Shown: positions 13,140 through 30,971, counted from the stretch's first letter. The stretch is DNA of 32,000 nucleotides from Sinorhizobium meliloti (GCF_017876815.1 NZ_JAGIOS010000002.1:420001-452000); one strand, 5' to 3'. A program made the numbers and translations. The notes: generated by a model not told the origin, from the sequence alone.

Positions 13140-13216
13140 GCACCCGTAGCTCAGCTGGATAGAGTGTTGGATTCCGATTCCAAAGGTCACAGGTTCGAAT
13201 CCTGTCGGGTGCGCCA
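13140..13216 (+). tRNA. tRNA-Arg (anticodon CCG)
   Basis: Folded by hand into a cloverleaf. Acceptor GCACCCG/CGGGTGC, D-arm GCTC..GAGT, anticodon stem TTGGA/TCCAA with loop TTCCGAT. T-arm ACAGG-TTCGAAT-CCTGT, with an encoded CCA. Confidence 0.93.
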
Positions 13217-15969: not shown

Positions 15970-16007
15970 GGATATATTCCTCCCGGAGAGCACGCGGATC
16001 GCATTCA

Positions 16008-16032
16008 AACGATGAACTCGGGAAACTGTTCC
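16008..16032 (-). promoter_or_regulatory. EcfG/RpoE2-type general stress response promoter (GGAAC-N16-CGTT)
   Basis: The minus strand reads GGAAC (16032-16028), 16 nt, then CGTT (16011-16008). This is 39 nt upstream of ATG 15969. Confidence 0.6.
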
Positions 16033-17873: not shown

Positions 17874-18605
17874 TAGCCCATTAACGCACAGGCCCGCGAA
17901 AAGCCGAATTGACTCTTTCGGCTGAGAGAACATATTAGGAACATTCGACGGCGATGCGGCGCCATTCCATCAATCAGGGGCGAAACTAGAATGACGCGCG
18001 TCATGCGAACACTTGCCGATGAGATAGGAACCGCGATTGAAGTCGATCTGGCGGTAATGCCTTCGCACCAAAGGCGGGCCTACGCCGGCCTCGACCAGTA
18101 CCGCCGTCCCGTTGAGGTGCGCGGCGTCCAGGAACTCGCCAAGGGCATTGCCGAATCCTTCGGGGCCTTTGCCATCTTCGATGTGGAGACGGTGCTGCGG
18201 TCTCCGGCGATCACGCCATTCGTTACGCAAACGCTCTACTCGATCCCGCTTGAACTGCGGCGGGCCGCGTGTGACCGCGACCGGCTGAAAGCAGAAAGCG
18301 CGCGCAAGGAGATGGCACGGATAATCTCGGCCGCACTTCTGGCGCGATACCATTTCGAGCCCTTGAAGCACGTCGGCGCCTCCTGCCATCCGAATTGGGA
18401 AGAGGCCTTCGAGCAGCAGTTTGGCGCCGGCCGTGGGGCGATCGACATGAGTGACGAACTGGGAGCCAAGCCCCACATCCCAAGCCGGTCCGTTTGTCCA
18501 CTACTGCGAGCACCCCGGCTGCACGAAGTGGGGCAGCTTCGGCTTCGCAGTCGGCCGCGACGAGCCGCACTGGTTCTGCTCCGAGCATCGGCCGGAATGG
18601 AATTC
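17745..18605. repeat. Diverged direct repeat, copy 1 (ligase 5' end, divergent ORF and Zn-ribbon ORF)
   Basis: Aligns by eye along its length with 22605-23450, at roughly 85-90 percent identity with small indels. Confidence 0.8.
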
Positions 18606-18614
18606 CCGCCATGA
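17991..18614 (+). CDS. Hypothetical protein (repeat-module gene A); the real C-terminus is probably near 18450
   Basis: Rhizobial codon bias, and many differences from copy 2 are synonymous, which supports this strand and frame. The last ~55 codons overlap the Zn-ribbon ORF and look non-genuine. Confidence 0.5.
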
Positions 18615-18633
18615 GGCACAGCCGCGGCATTGA
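18451..18633 (+). CDS. Small Cys/His zinc-ribbon-like protein (repeat-module gene B)
   Basis: The motif ..[36 protein letters not shown].. is conserved in copy 2 as YVHCCEHPGCTRWGGFGFTVGRSEPSWFCFEHRPEW. It has a GTG start. Confidence 0.5.
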
Positions 18634-18649
18634 CCTTCGTCGCAAGCGA

Positions 18650-18683
18650 CCCCGCCACCAACATCCCGTGGCTCGTGGCGGGG
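18650..18683 (+). terminator. Stem-loop after the Zn-ribbon ORF
   Basis: CCCCGCCAC (18650-18658) pairs with GTGGCGGGG (18675-18683). It is followed by a weakly T-rich tail. Confidence 0.4.
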
Positions 18684-18861
18684 TCTGCTCTAAATTGTTG
18701 CTGAAAAGTTTGCTCGTTACCTTTCATGCTCCAGCGCGCTGGGAGCCATGCAGTATTCGCCAAGTGGCTTTTCCCGTCCAGCAAGACGTCCGGATTAATT
18801 CGGAAGGGCGAAAGCTTGGACGTTTGTTGATTTCACGGCCACCTATTTGCTTGCCAAGATA

Positions 18862-18936
18862 CTAGTAGGCGACCTCGTGCTCCTGTTCGGAAACGAGTTC
18901 GCGGTCGCGGCCTTTCTTCTTCGGATTGTCTGCCAT
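18862..18936 (-). pseudogene. Truncated paralog of the 23980-24153 small protein
   Basis: MADNPKKKGRDRELVSEQEHEVAY then TAG. The nucleotide sequence is nearly identical to 24082-24153, and the RBS GGAGGA is retained. Confidence 0.4.
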
Positions 18937-19213
18937 GTAGTTCCTCCATCTAAGAACAGGAGGATAGGGGCGCATTGTTCATAGACAAGGTGCGAGCTAG
19001 TGGTGAACATTTCCTCGCCGCATGATCGTATCGGACCATAGTCTGGTTCGTGAGTGGCGAAGGTCTGAGACTACGCTTCCCGTGATGAAGCGAGAGGCAA
19101 GCCTTCTTGCCAGTGTCATACCTGGGGAGCATAGTGGACCATCAGCGGCACAAGACACGGGCACCGCTGACTGAGAGATCATTGCGCTTTCGCCCCAATG
19201 CGGAGGTCGCGTA

Positions 19214-19465
19214 ATGCTGCAGCACCATCAGCATCCAGATGCGATCATGCCTGATGGCGTCAGCCTTCTGGACGAAATCTTAACCCAACTCTTGACTGAG
19301 AGAGGACTTGGCCGAGACTGCGAAGATGCAGAGCATATCGCCGTAAGGCTAATTTCGCTCTTTCAATCCGGCGTACGCGATCGGGACATGCTGCGCAAAA
19401 TGGCGACCCCTGCGTTATTGGGAGAATTACGCGCTGGTCATCCTGTGTCGCCGGCATCATGTTGA
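19214..19465 (+). CDS. Hypothetical small protein
   Basis: 83-aa ORF with GGAGG 8 nt upstream of ATG 19214. Confidence 0.45.
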   Translation: MLQHHQHPDAIMPDGVSLLDEILTQLLTERGLGRDCEDAEHIAVRLISLFQSGVRDRDMLRKMATPALLGELRAGHPVSPASC

Positions 19466-19848
19466 GAAGCACGGGGTGGTCTGGCGTTAAGGAGTTGGGA
19501 AACGGCCGTTAACAGCTGCGATGAGGTAAACGGCTTTTCAATCATAATGCTGTTCGGGACACCTTTCGACGCCCAGTCCACAGCGCCGTGGCCGCTGATG
19601 TAAACGACCGGTATGTCAGGGTCGATCTCGCGGGCAACACGCGCCACTTCCCAGCCATCCGGGTATTCGCCAAACCGAATGTCGGTAACCACTCCATCGA
19701 TTGGGGCGTTTGCAGCCCTGAGAATCTCTATCGCTTTCCCGCCCCTCGTGACCGCTGTCACATGAAATCCCGCATCGGCGAGCGCGACCTCGAAATCCAT
19801 GAGCAGCAGCGCTTCATCGTCAGCGAGCAATATTGTAACCGCTTCCAT
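19438..19848 (-). CDS. Single-domain response regulator (CheY-like receiver only)
   Basis: MEAVTILLADDEALLLMDFE...GVVTDIRF...VVYISGHG...IEKPF carries the acidic pocket DD, a phospho-acceptor Asp and the conserved Lys. There is no output domain. Confidence 0.8.
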   Translation of the reverse strand: MEAVTILLADDEALLLMDFEVALADAGFHVTAVTRGGKAIEILRAANAPIDGVVTDIRFGEYPDGWEVARVAREIDPDIPVVYISGHGAVDWASKGVPNSIMIEKPFTSSQLLTAVSQLLNARPPRASQHDAGDTG

Positions 19849-19877
19849 AACTATTCCCGTACGGCTGAATCGCACTG

Positions 19878-19903
19878 AACGTGCGGGCATGGTGTATGGT
19901 TCC
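19878..19903 (-). promoter_or_regulatory. EcfG/RpoE2-type promoter (GGAAC-N17-CGTT) upstream of the response regulator
   Basis: The minus strand reads GGAAC (19903-19899), 17 nt, then CGTT (19881-19878). This is 30 nt upstream of ATG 19848. Confidence 0.6.
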
Positions 19904-20006: not shown

Positions 20007-20150
20007 ATGGCCGACGCGCAAAAGATGAAGAAGCTGACGAGAGCGGCGTAACGGAACACCAGCTGCAGCAGCGGCTCATGACCCGTCTTGGCCGCCAGCA
20101 GGCAAAGGAAGCGCTGGTGGCCGGCTGGCGACGACACTACACGCCCAACG
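20007..20150 (+). pseudogene. Degenerate member of the small-protein family (paralog of 20495-20773 and 24257-24493)
   Basis: MADAQKMKKLTRAA then a stop. Another frame continues TEHQLQQRLMTRLGRQQAKEALVAGW, homologous to ISEHELLQMLIARLHGRQAKEALGDDW. Confidence 0.35.
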
Positions 20151-20165
20151 GAATGCTGCAGCCTT

Positions 20166-20190
20166 GGAACAAAGTGGCACGAGATGCGTT
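20166..20190 (+). promoter_or_regulatory. EcfG/RpoE2-type promoter (GGAAC-N16-CGTT), sRNA module copy 1
   Basis: GGAAC at 20166-20170 and CGTT at 20187-20190. It is nearly identical to 23856-23880. Confidence 0.6.
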
Positions 20191-20195
20191 ACCGT

Positions 20196-20277
20196 GTCGC
20201 CGCGCTCTCTGCGGCACAGGTCGCCAACCTGTTTAGCAGTGCCCGTGTCGTCCCCGCGCGCGGGCATTCGCTTTTTA
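20196..20277 (+). ncRNA. Candidate GSR-dependent small RNA, copy 1 (5' end estimated)
   Basis: No start codon or RBS. Hairpins at 20199-20215 and at CAGGT-cgcca-ACCTG (20217-20231). The terminator stem is 20239-20247/20259-20267, followed by T5 at 20272-20276. Confidence 0.5.
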
Positions 20278-20494
20278 GCCCGGCCCTGGATGACGTTCCT
20301 GCAGCGGACACCGGCATCTTCGCAGCGCCGGTAATCCTTAAGAGCTAGGCGCGGAACCAACGTTATGCCAGCAAGTTGTGCACTCAAGTACGACAGCCCG
20401 GAGTGTCATGTTCTGGTCCTGAACGGGCTGTCTCGGACAGAACAAGCCCCGCCACAGCGCGGGGTTTGCTGTTCAAAAGGGAGTGTCCATTGAG

Positions 20495-20773
20495 ATGAGT
20501 GCAGAAAAGATGAGAAAGCTGATCCAGGACTGCCAGAGAGACATCGCCGCGTACCTTCCGCCGGAGAGCGGCATTTCGGAGCGCCAGCTGCTCCAGCAGT
20601 TGTCTAGCCGCCTCGACGGGCAGCAGGCGCAGGATGCGCTGGGAGATGGCTGGCAAGGCTGGTTGCCCGATGACGAAGACCCAGCCGGCGGTGACGACAT
20701 CAGCGCCGCGGCACCCACGAAGTGGTGGACCGAACCGGAGTTCTTCGGAACGATGTGGAAACTGAGGAGTTAG
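20495..20773 (+). CDS. Small acidic protein, family member B
   Basis: MSAEKMRKLIQDCQRDIAAYLPPESGISERQLLQQLSSRLDGQQAQDALGDGWQGWLPDDEDP... is a paralog of 24257-24493. Confidence 0.55.
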   Translation: MSAEKMRKLIQDCQRDIAAYLPPESGISERQLLQQLSSRLDGQQAQDALGDGWQGWLPDDEDPAGGDDISAAAPTKWWTEPEFFGTMWKLRS

Positions 20774-22736: not shown

Positions 22737-23450
22737 CTAACCATTAACACAGGACCCGGAAAAAGCCGAACTGACTCTTTTGGCTGAGAGAACATATTAG
22801 GAACATTCGGCGGCGATGCGGCGCGCCAGTCCAGGGGCGAAAGGCGCGCATCATGCGAACACTTGAAGATGAGATAGGAACCGGAATTGAAGTCGATCTT
22901 GCGGTAATGCCTTTGCACCAAAGGCGGGCCTGTGCCGGTCTCGACCAGTATCGCGGTCCCGTCGAGGTGCGCGGCGTCCACGAACTCGCTATGGGAGTTG
23001 CCGAATCCTTCGGGGTCTTTGCAATCTTCGATGTCGAGACGGTGTTGCGGTCTCCGGCAATCACACCATTCGTTACGCAGACGCTCTACTCGATCCCGCT
23101 TGAACTGCGGCGGGCCGCCTGCGACCGCGACCGACCAAAAGCAGATAGCGCGCGCAAGGAGATCGCGCGGATAATCTCGGCCGCACTGCTGGCGTGAGCC
23201 ATTGAAGCACGTCGGCGCTTCCTGCCATCCGAATTGGGAAGAGATTTTCGAGCAGCAGTTTGGCGCCGGCCGAGGAGGAGGATCAAGCGGATGAGTGACG
23301 AACATGGCGCGAACCCCACTACGAGACCGGCCGCTATGTCCATTGCTGCGAGCATCCTGGCTGCACGAGATGGGGTGGCTTTGGTTTCACCGTCGGCCGG
23401 TCGGAGCCGAGTTGGTTCTGCTTTGAGCATCGGCCCGAATGGAAAATCGC
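22605..23450. repeat. Diverged direct repeat, copy 2
   Basis: Homologous to 17745-18605. All three gene parts are damaged in this copy. Confidence 0.8.
22853..23197 (+). pseudogene. Truncated copy of repeat-module gene A
   Basis: [39 protein letters not shown]... ends at a TGA created by an ~11-nt deletion relative to copy 1. Confidence 0.5.
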
Positions 23451-23499
23451 GCAGATGCGGTCGAGCGATCAGCGGCCAGATGCAGGCCAACGGCTATAG
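23295..23499 (+). pseudogene. Frameshifted copy of the Zn-ribbon gene
   Basis: The Cys/His motif frame (..YVHCCEHPGCTRWGGFGFTVGRSEPSWFCFEHRPEW..) is separated from the GTG start by a 1-nt insertion (GTGACGAAC-A-TGG). Confidence 0.4.
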
Positions 23500-23566
23500 A
23501 GAAAGCTATATTGGTGAACATTAGCAACTGCTGTAGAATTACCGCAGCCAAACGGAGGGTGAGCAA

Positions 23567-23839
23567 TTGGACGAGCTTCGAAAAGAGGGTTCGCCCGCCG
23601 AGGAAGATAGGCGCGAGTTTTTAAAGGCTTGCGGCCGCTTCGCGGCAGTCACCCCGCCTGCAGTGACCATATTGCTGTCGACCAGCCTCACTTCTGATGC
23701 CATCGCAGCATCCGGCAGCGGCGCCTCCGGGGGAAAGGGCGGCGGCGGGAATAGTGCAAAGGGCGGCAAGGGTGGAAATGGCACGAAGGGCGGTAAAGGA
23801 GGAAATAACGCCAAAGGGAAGGCCAAACCTGGTAAATAA
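23567..23839 (+). CDS. Small secreted protein with a Tat-like signal and a Gly/Lys-rich tail
   Basis: TTG start with GGAGGG 7 nt upstream. DRREFLKACGRFAAVTPPAVTILLS is a twin-arginine signal. The tail reads GSGASGGKGGGGNSAKGGKGGNGTKGGKGGNNAKGKAKPGK. Confidence 0.55.
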   Translation: MDELRKEGSPAEEDRREFLKACGRFAAVTPPAVTILLSTSLTSDAIAASGSGASGGKGGGGNSAKGGKGGNGTKGGKGGNNAKGKAKPGK

Positions 23840-23855
23840 ATGCTGCAGGAAGCCT

Positions 23856-23880
23856 GGAACAAAGTCGCACGAGATGCGTT
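23856..23880 (+). promoter_or_regulatory. EcfG/RpoE2-type promoter (GGAAC-N16-CGTT), sRNA module copy 2
   Basis: GGAAC at 23856-23860 and CGTT at 23877-23880. Confidence 0.6.
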
Positions 23881-23885
23881 ATTCG

Positions 23886-23971
23886 TGGCGCCGCGCATTC
23901 CGCGGCACCAGGTCCCCCAACCTGTTCAGAGTGCCCGCCACCATCCCCTGGTGCGGGCACTCACTCTTTTT
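23886..23971 (+). ncRNA. Candidate GSR-dependent small RNA, copy 2 (5' end estimated)
   Basis: Hairpins at 23887-23909 and at CAGGT-ccccca-ACCTG (23909-23924). A 10-bp terminator stem at 23929-23938/23953-23962 is followed by T5 at 23967-23971. No ORF. Confidence 0.5.
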
Positions 23972-23979
23972 GATATCTT

Positions 23980-24153
23980 CTACTTGCACTGAAGGTAGTC
24001 CATCACCTTATCTCGGTTCGGCCCGGCTTCGCGGATCGCCTCAAGCGCCTTCTGCCGCGTCACCCTCGCCGTTCGCATGAGGTACGCGACCTCGTGCTCC
24101 TGTTCGGACACCAGCTCGCGGTCGCGGCCTCTCTTCTTCGGATTATCTGCCAT
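23980..24153 (-). CDS. Small protein; resembles DUF3606-type proteins from memory
   Basis: MADNPKKRGRDRELVSEQEHEVAYLMRTARVTRQKALEAIREAGPNRDKVMDYLQCK, with RBS GGAGGA before ATG 24153. Confidence 0.6.
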   Translation of the reverse strand: MADNPKKRGRDRELVSEQEHEVAYLMRTARVTRQKALEAIREAGPNRDKVMDYLQCK

Positions 24154-24210
24154 GCTTTCCTCCATCAACATGGATAAAGGATAGGAGCCGACCGGCCGTC
24201 GGCAAGGACT

Positions 24211-24235
24211 GGAACCTCATGCCCGGTGACGTGTT
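24211..24235 (+). promoter_or_regulatory. Near-consensus GSR promoter (GGAAC-N16-TGTT)
   Basis: GGAAC at 24211-24215 and TGTT at 24232-24235, 22 nt before ATG 24257. A homologous degenerate version (GGAAG-N16-TGTT) lies at 19961-19985. Confidence 0.4.
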
Positions 24236-24256: not shown

Positions 24257-24493
24257 ATGGCCGGCAAAGAGAAGATGAAGCAGCTCATTTGGGACTGCCA
24301 GAAGGACATTGCCGCCGACCCGCCGCCGGAGAGCGGCATTTCAGAGCACGAGCTGCTACAGATGCTCATCGCCCGTCTCCATGGTCGCCAGGCGAAGGAA
24401 GCGCTGGGTGATGATTGGCAAGGTTGGGGGCCGGATGACGATGGCGGCGGCGACGGCGGTAGCCCCGTTCGTCAAGACCGAGAGATGGCCTGA
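24257..24493 (+). CDS. Small acidic protein, family member C
   Basis: MAGKEKMKQLIWDCQKDIAADPPPESGISEHELLQMLIARLHGRQAKEALGDDWQGWGPDDDGGG..., with RBS GAGGAG at 24244-24249. Confidence 0.6.
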   Translation: MAGKEKMKQLIWDCQKDIAADPPPESGISEHELLQMLIARLHGRQAKEALGDDWQGWGPDDDGGGDGGSPVRQDREMA

Positions 24494-25440: not shown

Positions 25441-26604
25441 ATGATCCTCAATGGAACTAGCCTGTCTGACGTCATCCGTGGCTTTCTTAGCGACGACCAG
25501 ATATGGGGATATGCAGGCGACGATTATCTCTACGGCGGCGTCGGCAATGACAGGATCTTTGGCGGCGATGGCAATGACTATATCGTCGGCGGCGTCGGCG
25601 ATGACTATGCCGAGGGCGGCGAGGGTAACGATCGGCTCGACGGCGGCCTCGGGAACGATGCGTTCATGGGTGGAATAGGGAACGACATCTTTGACGGCGG
25701 GGAAGGCAACGACGTTCTCGATGGCGGCCATGGCCATGACCAGATGCTGGGCGGTCGGGGACACGACAAGATTTTTGGTGGCGCGGGAGAAGATTACATC
25801 GACGCAGACGAGGGCGACGACATTATTTTTGCTGGGTCCGGAGACGACGGCTTCAACAATCGGGTGAACCCCGCAACGGGCAAGCTGACGCAGCAGGCGG
25901 TAGGTGGTGGCGCCGGCAACGATACCATCTATGGCGAAGGGGGCAACGACGCTCTAAAGGGCCAATCCGGAAACGACCGGGTCTATGGCGGCATCGGCGA
26001 CGACATCGTCGATGGCGGCAACGGAAACAACTATCTCGATGGCGGCGACGGCAACGATGTGTTGGATTCGGAGGGCGGAAGCGACGAAGCCCATGGTGGC
26101 AGCGGCAATGACAGAATCTCGGTGGGGGCCGGTAACGACCGGGCCTTTGGGGATGACGGAGATGACATCCTGACCAGCGGGGCCGGCGACGATTATCTGA
26201 GCGGCGGCATCCATCAGGATCGCCTTTTTGGCGGCACTGGCAATGACACACTGCGGGGTGACGCAGGCCGAGACGTTCTCTCAGGCGACGCGGGAAGCGA
26301 CATACTCTGGGGCGGATCCGATTCCGACCGCTTTGTCTTCAAGGGCTTAGGGGCACTATCTGGCCAGGATACCGTCATGGATTTTCAGGATGGCCTGGAC
26401 TTGCTTGCCATCGAGACGCTCGGGGTCAAGCAGTACTCCAACTCCGGCGCCGCAGGTACGATCTACGCCTACGACGCCACCGGCGGCGACGTGCTGGTGA
26501 AGGGCTACAATTCTGCCGGGAACGCGTTCTCCATCCTGGTGGACGATCCCAACGGCAGTCTCACCGCTGCCAACTTCTCGAGGGCGGACTTCGTTTTCGC
26601 ATAG
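25441..26604 (+). CDS. RTX-type calcium-binding repeat protein (probable type I secretion substrate)
   Basis: More than 20 GGxGxD nonapeptide repeats (GGVGNDRIFGGDGNDYIVGGVGDDY...). There is no N-terminal signal peptide. The C-terminal non-repeat domain ends in DFVFA. Confidence 0.88.
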   Translation: MILNGTSLSDVIRGFLSDDQIWGYAGDDYLYGGVGNDRIFGGDGNDYIVGGVGDDYAEGGEGNDRLDGGLGNDAFMGGIGNDIFDGGEGNDVLDGGHGHDQMLGGRGHDKIFGGAGEDYIDADEGDDIIFAGSGDDGFNNRVNPATGKLTQQAVGGGAGNDTIYGEGGNDALKGQSGNDRVYGGIGDDIVDGGNGNNYLDGGDGNDVLDSEGGSDEAHGGSGNDRISVGAGNDRAFGDDGDDILTSGAGDDYLSGGIHQDRLFGGTGNDTLRGDAGRDVLSGDAGSDILWGGSDSDRFVFKGLGALSGQDTVMDFQDGLDLLAIETLGVKQYSNSGAAGTIYAYDATGGDVLVKGYNSAGNAFSILVDDPNGSLTAANFSRADFVFA

Positions 26605-30945: not shown

Positions 30946-30971
30946 GGAACAAAGCGGAATGCGATTCGGTT
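30946..30971 (+). promoter_or_regulatory. Relaxed GSR-like promoter (GGAAC-N17-GGTT) upstream of ku
   Basis: GGAACAAAG at 30946-30954 shares the extended -35 of the sRNA promoters, and GGTT lies at 30968-30971, 30 nt before ATG 31001. The same relaxed pattern occurs by chance at 2870-2895, so this is weak on its own. Confidence 0.35.

Follow-up and report, generated by a model that had tools for sequence, protein, structure and literature searches.

Positions 23840–23975 on the plus strand of a 32,000-nucleotide (nt) stretch of Sinorhizobium meliloti DNA (GCF_017876815.1, NZ_JAGIOS010000002.1:420001–452000; the whole stretch is called the window here) raise the question of whether this short interval encodes an independent small RNA (sRNA) under the general stress sigma factor RpoE2, a member of the EcfG class, and whether such an RNA is already known. 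An earlier sequence-only reading had proposed a promoter, a transcript of ~85 nt and a terminator as one unit, repeated once in the window, and had left open whether the family was catalogued. Our analysis reveals that this element, hereafter copy 2, is a real, independent non-coding RNA gene of ~80 nt on the megaplasmid pSymB, and that it is the already catalogued SmelB128 locus. The fuller reading, in which this independent sRNA gene is transcribed by RpoE2, acts in trans and has a degenerate copy 3.7 kb upstream, has in our estimate a probability of about 0.7. The features of copy 2 are as follows.

23856..23862, plus strand: −35 element GGAACAA of an RpoE2/EcfG-type promoter, read in the sequence (matrix score 19.0 bits)
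23876..23881, plus strand: −10 element GCGTTA, 13 nt downstream of the −35 heptamer
23888..23971, plus strand: sRNA transcript, equivalent of SmelB128, 5′ end at G23888 (from mapped 1021 coordinates, covariance model and fold z-score)
23890..23906, plus strand: hairpin 1, GCCGCG / CAUUC / CGCGGC (from independent folds)
23909..23924, plus strand: hairpin 2, CAGGU-CCCCCA-ACCUG, the most conserved part, with the proposed seed loop at 23914–23919
23929..23962, plus strand: terminator hairpin with loop UCCCC at 23944–23948 (from the fold and family pairing)
23967..23971, plus strand: U5 tract, starting 4 nt past the stem

By BLAST, the pSymB megaplasmids of many S. meliloti strains match the region with 98.5–100% identity; in strain 1021 the match is pSymB 1331170–1331303 on the plus strand, with 98.5% identity over 136 nt. 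SmelB128 is a 78-nt RNA at pSymB 1331218–1331295 on the plus strand (Schlueter et al. 2010, BMC Genomics 11:245, PMC2873474, Tables S1 and S10), seen in two 454 samples of S. meliloti 1021 at mean coverages of 43 and 19 and with a predicted shape [][][] of −42.9 kcal/mol (PMC2873474). When the coordinates are transferred, the catalogued RNA occupies 23888–23967 of the window, and its first position, 1331218, falls on 23888, exactly 7 nt past the −10 hexamer, the same geometry as that of mapped RpoE2 start sites. Its 3′ ends were reported at 1331240, 1331290 and 1331293, with a catalogued end at 1331295 (PMC2873474); 1331290, 1331293 and 1331295 correspond to 23962–23967, where the terminator stem ends and the U-run begins. 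Because the SmelB128 ends map to 23888 and to the terminator, the predicted transcript exists and is already catalogued. Copy 2 thus agrees with SmelB128 in locus, strand and extent, as well as in size and three-hairpin shape. The sequence-only reading had staked its case on a discrete RNA of 75–95 nt, and the 454 RNA-seq data provide one of 78 nt on the predicted strand and at the predicted position (PMC2873474); as for its question about cataloguing, the RNA is without a match in Rfam 15, yet has been in the published S. meliloti sRNA catalogue since 2010. Three differences from the catalogue entry are to be noted. Hairpin 1 is 2 nt shorter in 1021 than in copy 2; the window strain has an additional copy (20166–20276), while the pSymB of 1021 has only one matching place; and the entry describes an RNA cis-antisense to SMb21399, without promoter, family or function, while the RNA described here is intergenic, is preceded by an RpoE2-type promoter and has many paralogs.

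Relatives were gathered by BLAST against 72,556 plasmids and by one exact-pattern scan of 185,579 species genomes. This yielded 18 distinct relatives, or 19 distinct members once the published sRNA SmelB008, discussed below, is added. They reside on pSymB, on pSymA (1015838–1015953 in strain 2011), on accessory plasmids and on a 3.7-Mb replicon of strain Ak57, labelled pSymB though chromosome-sized, and further members occur in S. medicae, S. kummerowiae, S. fredii, S. americanum and three Ensifer isolates. All significant BLAST hits among the 72,556 plasmids were in Sinorhizobium, with none beyond Sinorhizobium/Ensifer, and the eight stretches found by the pattern scan were all from Sinorhizobium or Ensifer, a search to which diverged relatives are invisible. 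Loci of the family carry L-numbers (L001, L003 and so on), and the mapping to 1021 runs through L001. The Rfam check that had been suggested with the initial proposal returned no Rfam 15 family for either copy, with only chance-level hits both for the whole window at gathering thresholds and for the two copies at E-values up to 10; the best sRNA-type similarity was to sX13, at 13.5 bits.

Mapped S. meliloti RpoE2 promoters consist of a −35 heptamer, a 13-nt spacer and a −10 hexamer, with transcription starting ~7–8 nt further on (PMC3616915, Tables S19–S21). Parsed in this format, copy 2 reads GGAACAA / AGTCGCACGAGAT / GCGTTA, with a 13-nt spacer and an expected start site at 23888–23889, and its −10 hexamer is identical to those of the published RpoE2 promoters of SMc01505 (rsiA1) and SMb20908. 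The promoter core had been noticed initially as GGAAC (23856–23860), a gap of 16 nt and CGTT (23877–23880), and these coordinates are right. Scored with a position matrix trained on 31 published RpoE2 promoters (training median 16.5 bits, maximum 19.8 bits), the promoters of copy 1 and copy 2 tie as the two best matches on both strands of the 32-kb window, at 19.0 bits; in 30 shuffled windows the best score averaged 14.8 bits, and 1 shuffle got to 18. The looser pattern GGAAC-N15–18-CGTT occurs seven times in the window, against 1.2 expected. Copy 2 also has the sequence signature of the RpoE2/EcfG class, namely GGAAC-N18–19-TT with a start 7–8 nt past the −10 hexamer. Among the family, the GGAACAA heptamer followed by N18–19-TT is kept in 17 of the 19 members, 52–58 nt upstream of hairpin 2, and the spacer sequences of these promoter-keeping members diverge widely. 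As judged from sequence comparison, this conservation is the strongest comparative argument that the element functions as a promoter.

An inverted repeat flanks the −35 GGAACAA in family members L006, L009, L014, L016 and L020 and is weak at window positions 23850–23870. Its sequence varies (CCUCUUUG/CAAAGAGG, GCCCU/AGGGC, CGCGC/GCGCG, GCGGGG/CCCCCGC), and it could be the terminator of the upstream gene or an operator.

The promoter bears directly on the idea that the RNA is a processed 3′ untranslated region fragment of the upstream messenger, which encodes a Gly/Lys-rich protein, or a terminator preceded by a promoter-like motif that arose by chance. Indeed, the unit begins straight after an upstream stop codon in copy 2, in the pSymA copy and in S. 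medicae L007, and the 2010 libraries did not tell primary from processed 5′ ends. However, 17 of 19 members retain the promoter irrespective of the gene upstream, the 5′ end lies exactly at the predicted start, and such a promoter score is rare in shuffled sequence, all of which makes this origin very improbable.

The published classification of SmelB128 as a "cis-encoded antisense sRNA" to SMb21399 (minus strand, 1330868–1331272; PMC2873474) was made because the original 1021 annotation places this hypothetical gene on the minus strand. The flanking genes of copy 2 lead to a different picture.

23567..23839, plus strand: gene encoding a small Gly/Lys-rich protein that carries a twin-arginine-like signal; it lies upstream, with its stop codon directly adjoining the sRNA unit
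23980..24171, minus strand: convergent DUF3606 gene, SMb21683 in 1021 (PF12244, E = 6.5e-15); its stop codon is 9 nt past the U-run

The minus-strand open reading frame (ORF) does exist in the window, at 23539–23898, and together with the 2010 entry it speaks for an antisense role. Nevertheless, it overlaps the plus-strand ORF 23567–23839, which is annotated by NCBI, is preceded by a GGAGG ribosome-binding site and encodes 90 amino acids with the twin-arginine-like signal RREFLKACGRFAAV; the 486 homologs of this product come from Sinorhizobium, Ensifer and Bradyrhizobium, and some of them bear the name 'twin-arginine translocation signal domain-containing protein', while a family search with the minus-strand ORF gave no match. 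Since the plus-strand ORF has both a ribosome-binding site and these homologs and the minus-strand ORF belongs to no family, the SMb21399 annotation is probably spurious, and SmelB128 therefore would be intergenic, between the 23567–23839 gene and the convergent DUF3606 gene. Moreover, the sRNA recurs at loci that lack the minus-strand ORF. An antisense RNA to SMb21399 is thus hardly credible as the nature of SmelB128. A published sigma-70-type minus-strand start, SMb_TSS2913 (window ~23829), is antisense to the 23567–23839 gene.

The classification probably also explains how SmelB128 escaped later surveys. Family models were built for 52 trans-encoded sRNAs, SmelB128 not being among them (PMC3927594), probably because it had been misfiled as antisense. 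Likewise, intergenic regions shorter than 150 nt had no probes on the Affymetrix chip (PMC3616915), and the annotated gap between SMb21399 and SMb21683 is only ~35 nt, which is probably why SmelB128 is missing from the list of rpoE2-dependent intergenic regions.

Folding supports an RNA of the predicted architecture. The segment 23887–23972 folds with −44.6 kcal/mol and z = −7.4, a value equalled by none of 200 shuffles, and the minimum free energy structures of both copies are three hairpins in succession. Hairpin 1 is contained in the inverted repeat GGCGCCGCG/CGCGGCACC spanning 23887–23909, and the terminator arms GAGTGCCCGC/GCGGGCACTC lie at 23929–23938 and 23953–23962, followed by ACTC and then T5 at 23967–23971; re-reading of the sequence bore out the hairpin positions first given for the unit (23887–23909, 23909–23924 and 23929–23962) and its U5 tract. 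The lower stem of the terminator, GAGUGCCCGC/GCGGGCACUC, is kept in the family, and the upper stem differs among members yet still pairs. A non-coding nature had also been claimed and agrees with the body, 23888–23971, which has neither AUG nor Shine-Dalgarno sequence, and with family insertions and deletions that are not multiples of three. A 50-amino-acid ORF starting at ATG 23840 was rejected as a coding candidate: its ATG lies upstream of the start site and is unconserved, and insertions and deletions of 1–2 nt occur after the −10 element.

The three hairpins recur across the family, 17 of the 19 members giving the same three when folded singly. In the model-fitted alignment, 92.3% of the cells are paired, compared with 30–44% after sliding the partners. 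Helix 2 pairs fully (100%) in 18 sequences, and only one of its pairs varies, on one side (G-C to G-U); helix 3 is paired in 96.7% of cells. Helix 1 is undercounted at 78%, as this alignment misplaces the GCCGAA/UUCGGC variants; hairpin 1 was therefore read from independent folds, since MAFFT with RNAalifold missed it and the alignment is inconsistent there. It is GCCG-CG/CG-CGGC in most members and GCCG-AA/UU-CGGC or GCCG-AG/UU-CGGC in four, so that the compensatory changes C-G to A-U and G-C to A-U are seen, and on scaffold 16 of Ensifer USDA 6670 the entire stem is exchanged for AGAGC/GCUCU. The covariation support is real but modest, with few events. The most conserved element of all is CAGGU-CCCCCA-ACCUG-UU, in which the C-run is present in most members, and this conservation of the hairpin-2 loop suggests a sequence-specific contact.

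The repeat that the sequence-only reading had placed at 20153–20280 proved to be a second copy, both by sequence and by the covariance model.

20166..20191, plus strand: RpoE2-type promoter of copy 1, GGAACAA-N13-GCGTTA (19.0 bits)
20198..20276, plus strand: sRNA copy 1, predicted 5′ end 20198–20199, U5 at 20272–20276; absent from the pSymB of 1021

The homology begins at ATGCTGCAG (20153), with GGAAC at 20166. Whether or not speed filters are applied, the covariance model detects these two copies and no others in the window, scoring 96.7 bits at 23886–23974 and 71 bits at 20195–20281. Copy 1, which folds with −39.6 kcal/mol (z = −4.45) and adjoins a frameshifted small-ORF remnant (20007–20150), is the second and more degenerate copy, 3.7 kb upstream of copy 2. 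Both copies lie inside a rearranged segmental duplication (17893–18937 versus 22755–24154, blocks 89–93% identical), which also holds fragments of ligD-like ORFs and a second, truncated copy of DUF3606 (18865–18937, minus strand). In strain SM11 the two sRNA copies are separated by 2,240 nt, versus 3,690 nt in the window, and ORF translations at 21.9–22.4 kb look transposase-like by eye.

A further relative bears another name. SmelB008, at pSymB 65071–65147, is a 77-nt RNA listed with an RpoE2 promoter and a copy number of 1 (Microorganisms 2020, 8:384, PMC7143759). Its family, described by the model RFMSmelB008, occurs only in the Sinorhizobium/Ensifer group (Reinkensmeier et al. 2011, Genes 2:925). 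Model R1, built from the 18 relatives of the window RNA, hits 1021 pSymB 65067–65157, that is, SmelB008, with 47.4 bits and E = 3.6e-11, the homology having been tested in this one direction, from the window family to the SmelB008 locus. The window RNA thus shows detectable homology to SmelB008 and the same confinement to Sinorhizobium/Ensifer. Both RNAs have GGAACAA, a start 7 nt past the −10 element, a length of ~77 nt, three hairpins, the ACCUGUU motif, the identical terminator stem GUGCCCGCG/CGCGGGCAC and C-rich loops; the SmelB008 promoter is GGAACAA-N13-GAATTA, and the catalogued 5′ end follows it at the spacing expected. On the other hand, hairpin 2 of SmelB008 is CAGG-ACCCCAA-CCUG-UU, unlike the CAGGU-CCCCCA-ACCUG of the window RNA, and its hairpin 1 is unrelated in sequence, with a loop that contains CCCCC. 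The overall identity is only ~65–70%, which is why BLAST with the window copy missed SmelB008; BLAST with SmelB008 itself gave further weak matches on pSymA-type replicons. Neither the family-model paper nor the review table (PMC7143759) links SmelB008 with SmelB128. By sequence homology, SmelB128 is a paralog of SmelB008.

The pSymA paralog in strain 2011 (L004, 3008–3125, corresponding to pSymA 1015845–1015962) has an intact promoter and a degraded U-run (CACTTTCTCC), and it was not found in the 2010 RNA-seq catalogue. A microarray oligonucleotide at 1015987–1016036 (plus strand), ~30 nt past this copy, is flagged 'trans-encoded sRNA', which would fit read-through; it shows no clear stress pattern.

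The unrelated SmelB126/smB9 family resembles SmelB128 in being RpoE2-dependent, multi-copy (four copies) and megaplasmid-borne, with a terminator hairpin, and it lies ~6 kb upstream of SmelB128 in 1021. Its 111-nt sequence, which has a CUCCCUC motif, is a different one and is absent from the window. A relation to SmelB126 or SmelB127 was ruled out by sequence and by the lack of a covariance-model hit.

In the proposed mechanism, RpoE2 would transcribe SmelB128 during the general stress response (heat, salt, stationary phase), and the RNA would base-pair in trans through the CCCCCA loop of hairpin 2, possibly aided by the UCCCC loop of the terminator. Hairpin 1 and the terminator would serve mainly stability and 3′ end formation. 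By analogy with GsrN and sX13, the partners may be G-rich tracts in mRNA leaders or ribosome-binding regions. GsrN is a sigma-EcfG-dependent sRNA that recognises G-rich mRNA sites through six cytosines in a loop (Tien et al. 2018, eLife 7:e33684, PMC5869019), and that of Caulobacter crescentus, which shares with the window RNA the EcfG-type control and the cytosine run in a hairpin loop, is the best functional analogy. The C-loop of GsrN, however, is in the 5′ hairpin, whereas that of the window RNA is in the predicted middle hairpin, its targeting role being assigned by analogy, and the window-RNA family is multi-copy and megaplasmid-borne, unlike GsrN. BLAST homologs of GsrN were found only in Caulobacteraceae (PMC5869019), and no homology of the window RNA to GsrN was detectable via the Rfam 15 families, among which the presence of a GsrN model is uncertain, no direct sequence comparison being involved. 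Furthermore, the window RNA is not located beside ecfG-nepR-phyR, as it lies on pSymB with only a single-domain receiver gene nearby, and rpoE2, rsiA1 and rsiB1 carry the chromosomal tags SMc01504–SMc01506 (PMC3616915). The S. meliloti candidate of the GsrN authors lies beside the general stress response locus (PMC5869019) and, inferred from this position, would be SmelC601. sX13 of Xanthomonas (RF02232) is likewise short and multi-hairpin, with C-rich loops that bind G-rich motifs, but belongs to a different phylum-level lineage and has a different promoter type; membership of the window RNA was rejected, at 13.5 bits against a gathering score of 50 and E = 3.6 (the CAUCCCCUGG loop).

The sequence-only reading had pointed to pairing of the C-rich loops with GGAG-type ribosome-binding sites. 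Pairing with such sites would be weaker than with G-tracts, as the best partner of the CCCCC loop is GGGGG and opposite GGAGG there would be a C-A mismatch. The window shows no excess of TTGGGGGA-like motifs, with 24 against 24.3 expected. One 9-nt sequence, GGUUGGGGG (24423–24431, plus strand, in the small ORF 24257–24493), is a perfect complement of CCCCCAACC, which belongs to the loop and 3′ arm of hairpin 2; as a target it was given little weight, since the match is confined to the S. meliloti pSymB locus and absent from the other family loci.

Several points weigh against RpoE2-driven action in trans by an independent sRNA. The 2010 libraries were not selective for primary 5′ ends, so that 23888 could in principle be a processing site. 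The terminator stem has 14 pairs and its U5 lies 4 nt off, and a simple terminator scan made no call; some relatives, such as the pSymA copy and that of S. medicae WSM419, have no U-run or a degraded one. Hairpin 2 and the lower terminator stem are near-invariant and so provide no covariation, two-sided changes are seen in only three pairs, and a single event may account for the A-U variants of hairpin 1. In copy 1, the hairpin-2 loop is CGCCA instead of CCCCCA, a G interrupting the C-run. Pairing of both copies with the translation-initiation regions of neighbouring genes, calculated with RNAduplex, was never significant (z-scores from −2.4 to +1.8) and revealed no convincing target. Finally, no wild type versus rpoE2 mutant measurement of this RNA was found in the literature, whose relevant tables were covered only in part, and this start site or promoter was not found in the covered parts of the Schlueter 2013 and Sallet 2013 tables.

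The genomic setting adds two further explanations, which concern the genes that accompany the sRNA. Around the two copies the window contains the following elements, the promoter matches scoring in the range of 15.3–16.6 bits.

19438–19884, minus strand: single-domain response regulator gene (PF00072)
19878–19903, minus strand: RpoE2-type promoter before this response regulator gene
20353–20377, plus strand: RpoE2-type promoter before the small ORF 20483–20773
24211–24235, plus strand: RpoE2-type promoter before the small ORF 24257–24493 (SMb21400)
16007–16032, minus strand, and 30946–30971, plus strand: other RpoE2-type matches

Five RpoE2-type promoters are thus packed into ~4.4 kb, at 19903 (minus), 20166, 20353, 23856 and 24211 (all plus). 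The small ORFs at 24257–24493 and 20483–20773, with the degenerate 20007–20150, all on the plus strand, form a family of paralogs of SMa0450 and SMb21400, 78–96 amino acids long, with the pattern M..EKMK.LI.DCQ.DIAA..PPESGISE..LLQ; it has no match in Pfam or NCBIfam. The degenerate member carries a frameshift and is joined to the beginning of sRNA copy 1. ORF 20483–20773 is an 86% paralog of SMa0450, and the 20353 promoter and leader are near-identical to those of SMa0450, for which rpoE2 dependence (log ratio 3.3) and the start site were determined experimentally, with the leader named SmelA021 (PMC3616915). Across loci the order sRNA, convergent DUF3606 gene, small ORF recurs.

This recurring order could reflect a cis role, in which the sRNA and the DUF3606 gene share a terminator region, and antisense pairing or transcriptional interference alters the 3′ end, stability or read-through of the DUF3606 transcript. 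In most loci examined, including copy 2, the sRNA is immediately followed by a DUF3606 gene in tail-to-tail orientation (by tblastn in L001, L003, L006, L009, L010, L012 and L016, while L005 retains a C-terminal remnant). Read on the minus strand, the hairpin has no U-run after it, and DUF3606 transcripts may therefore continue into the sRNA antisense. However, no DUF3606 gene is directly downstream of copy 1, the pSymA copy, L011, L013/L014 or SmelB008, and the hairpin-2 loop is the most conserved part, which suggests contact in trans rather than this cis role; the synteny may merely be co-duplication. We regard such a cis role as an unlikely explanation of the RNA. A search of the literature on DUF3606 found nothing relevant.

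The small ORFs, in turn, invite the view that the element is, or derives from, the 5′ leader or attenuator of an SMa0450-like ORF, the short RNA being a product of premature termination. A small ORF does follow the RNA in most loci, and SMa0450 itself combines an RpoE2 promoter with the structured leader SmelA021. In Ensifer sp. IC3342 and MPMI2T (L013 3037–3131 and L014 6346–6440), the promoter and three hairpins end ~10 nt before the small-ORF ATG, with a weak U-run, and there the promoter-hairpin cassette appears to serve as a 5′ leader. In the window, by contrast, both small ORFs have their own RpoE2-type promoters (20353 and 24211) after the sRNA, an opposite-strand gene intervenes in copy 2, and the S. 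meliloti copies have good terminators, so that a leader origin is rather improbable here. For the window copies, each of these rival explanations is less likely than an independent sRNA, although the DUF3606 cis role and the leader or attenuator origin may apply as additional roles.

Elsewhere in the window, a tRNA-Arg (anticodon CCG, 13140–13216, plus strand) is the sole Rfam hit at gathering threshold, and downstream of the stress-gene cluster lies the gene of a 387-amino-acid RTX calcium-binding-repeat protein (25441–26604, plus strand; SMb21402 in 1021; PF00353, E = 3.7e-59).

Already known, then, are the locus as SmelB128, the paralog SmelB008 with its model and RpoE2 promoter, and EcfG-dependent C-loop sRNAs as a kind. 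What is new is the move of SmelB128 from antisense to intergenic, the union of SmelB128, SmelB008 and unlisted copies into one multi-replicon family, the near-invariant loop, and the synteny with DUF3606 and SMa0450-like genes. Several sRNAs are activated by RpoE2, and their regulatory impact is described as unknown (PMC6180224); little is known of what the rhizobial RpoE2 general stress response does post-transcriptionally. SmelB128 carries one of the best RpoE2 promoters of the region and belongs to a redundant sRNA family with a conserved C-rich loop, and this redundancy may explain why single deletions could be silent. The family is no new kind of regulator, but it provides defined loci and a seed to mutate. 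Tentatively, SmelB008 and SmelB128 could represent a Sinorhizobium-specific, RpoE2-driven CCCCCA-loop family spread over chromosome, pSymA, pSymB and accessory plasmids, which might act as a redundant, GsrN-like arm of the stress response on G-tract mRNAs and whose cassette doubles as a small-ORF leader in some Ensifer. If this rather doubtful proposal is true, the Ensifer leader cassettes would capture an sRNA and an mRNA leader in the course of interconverting.

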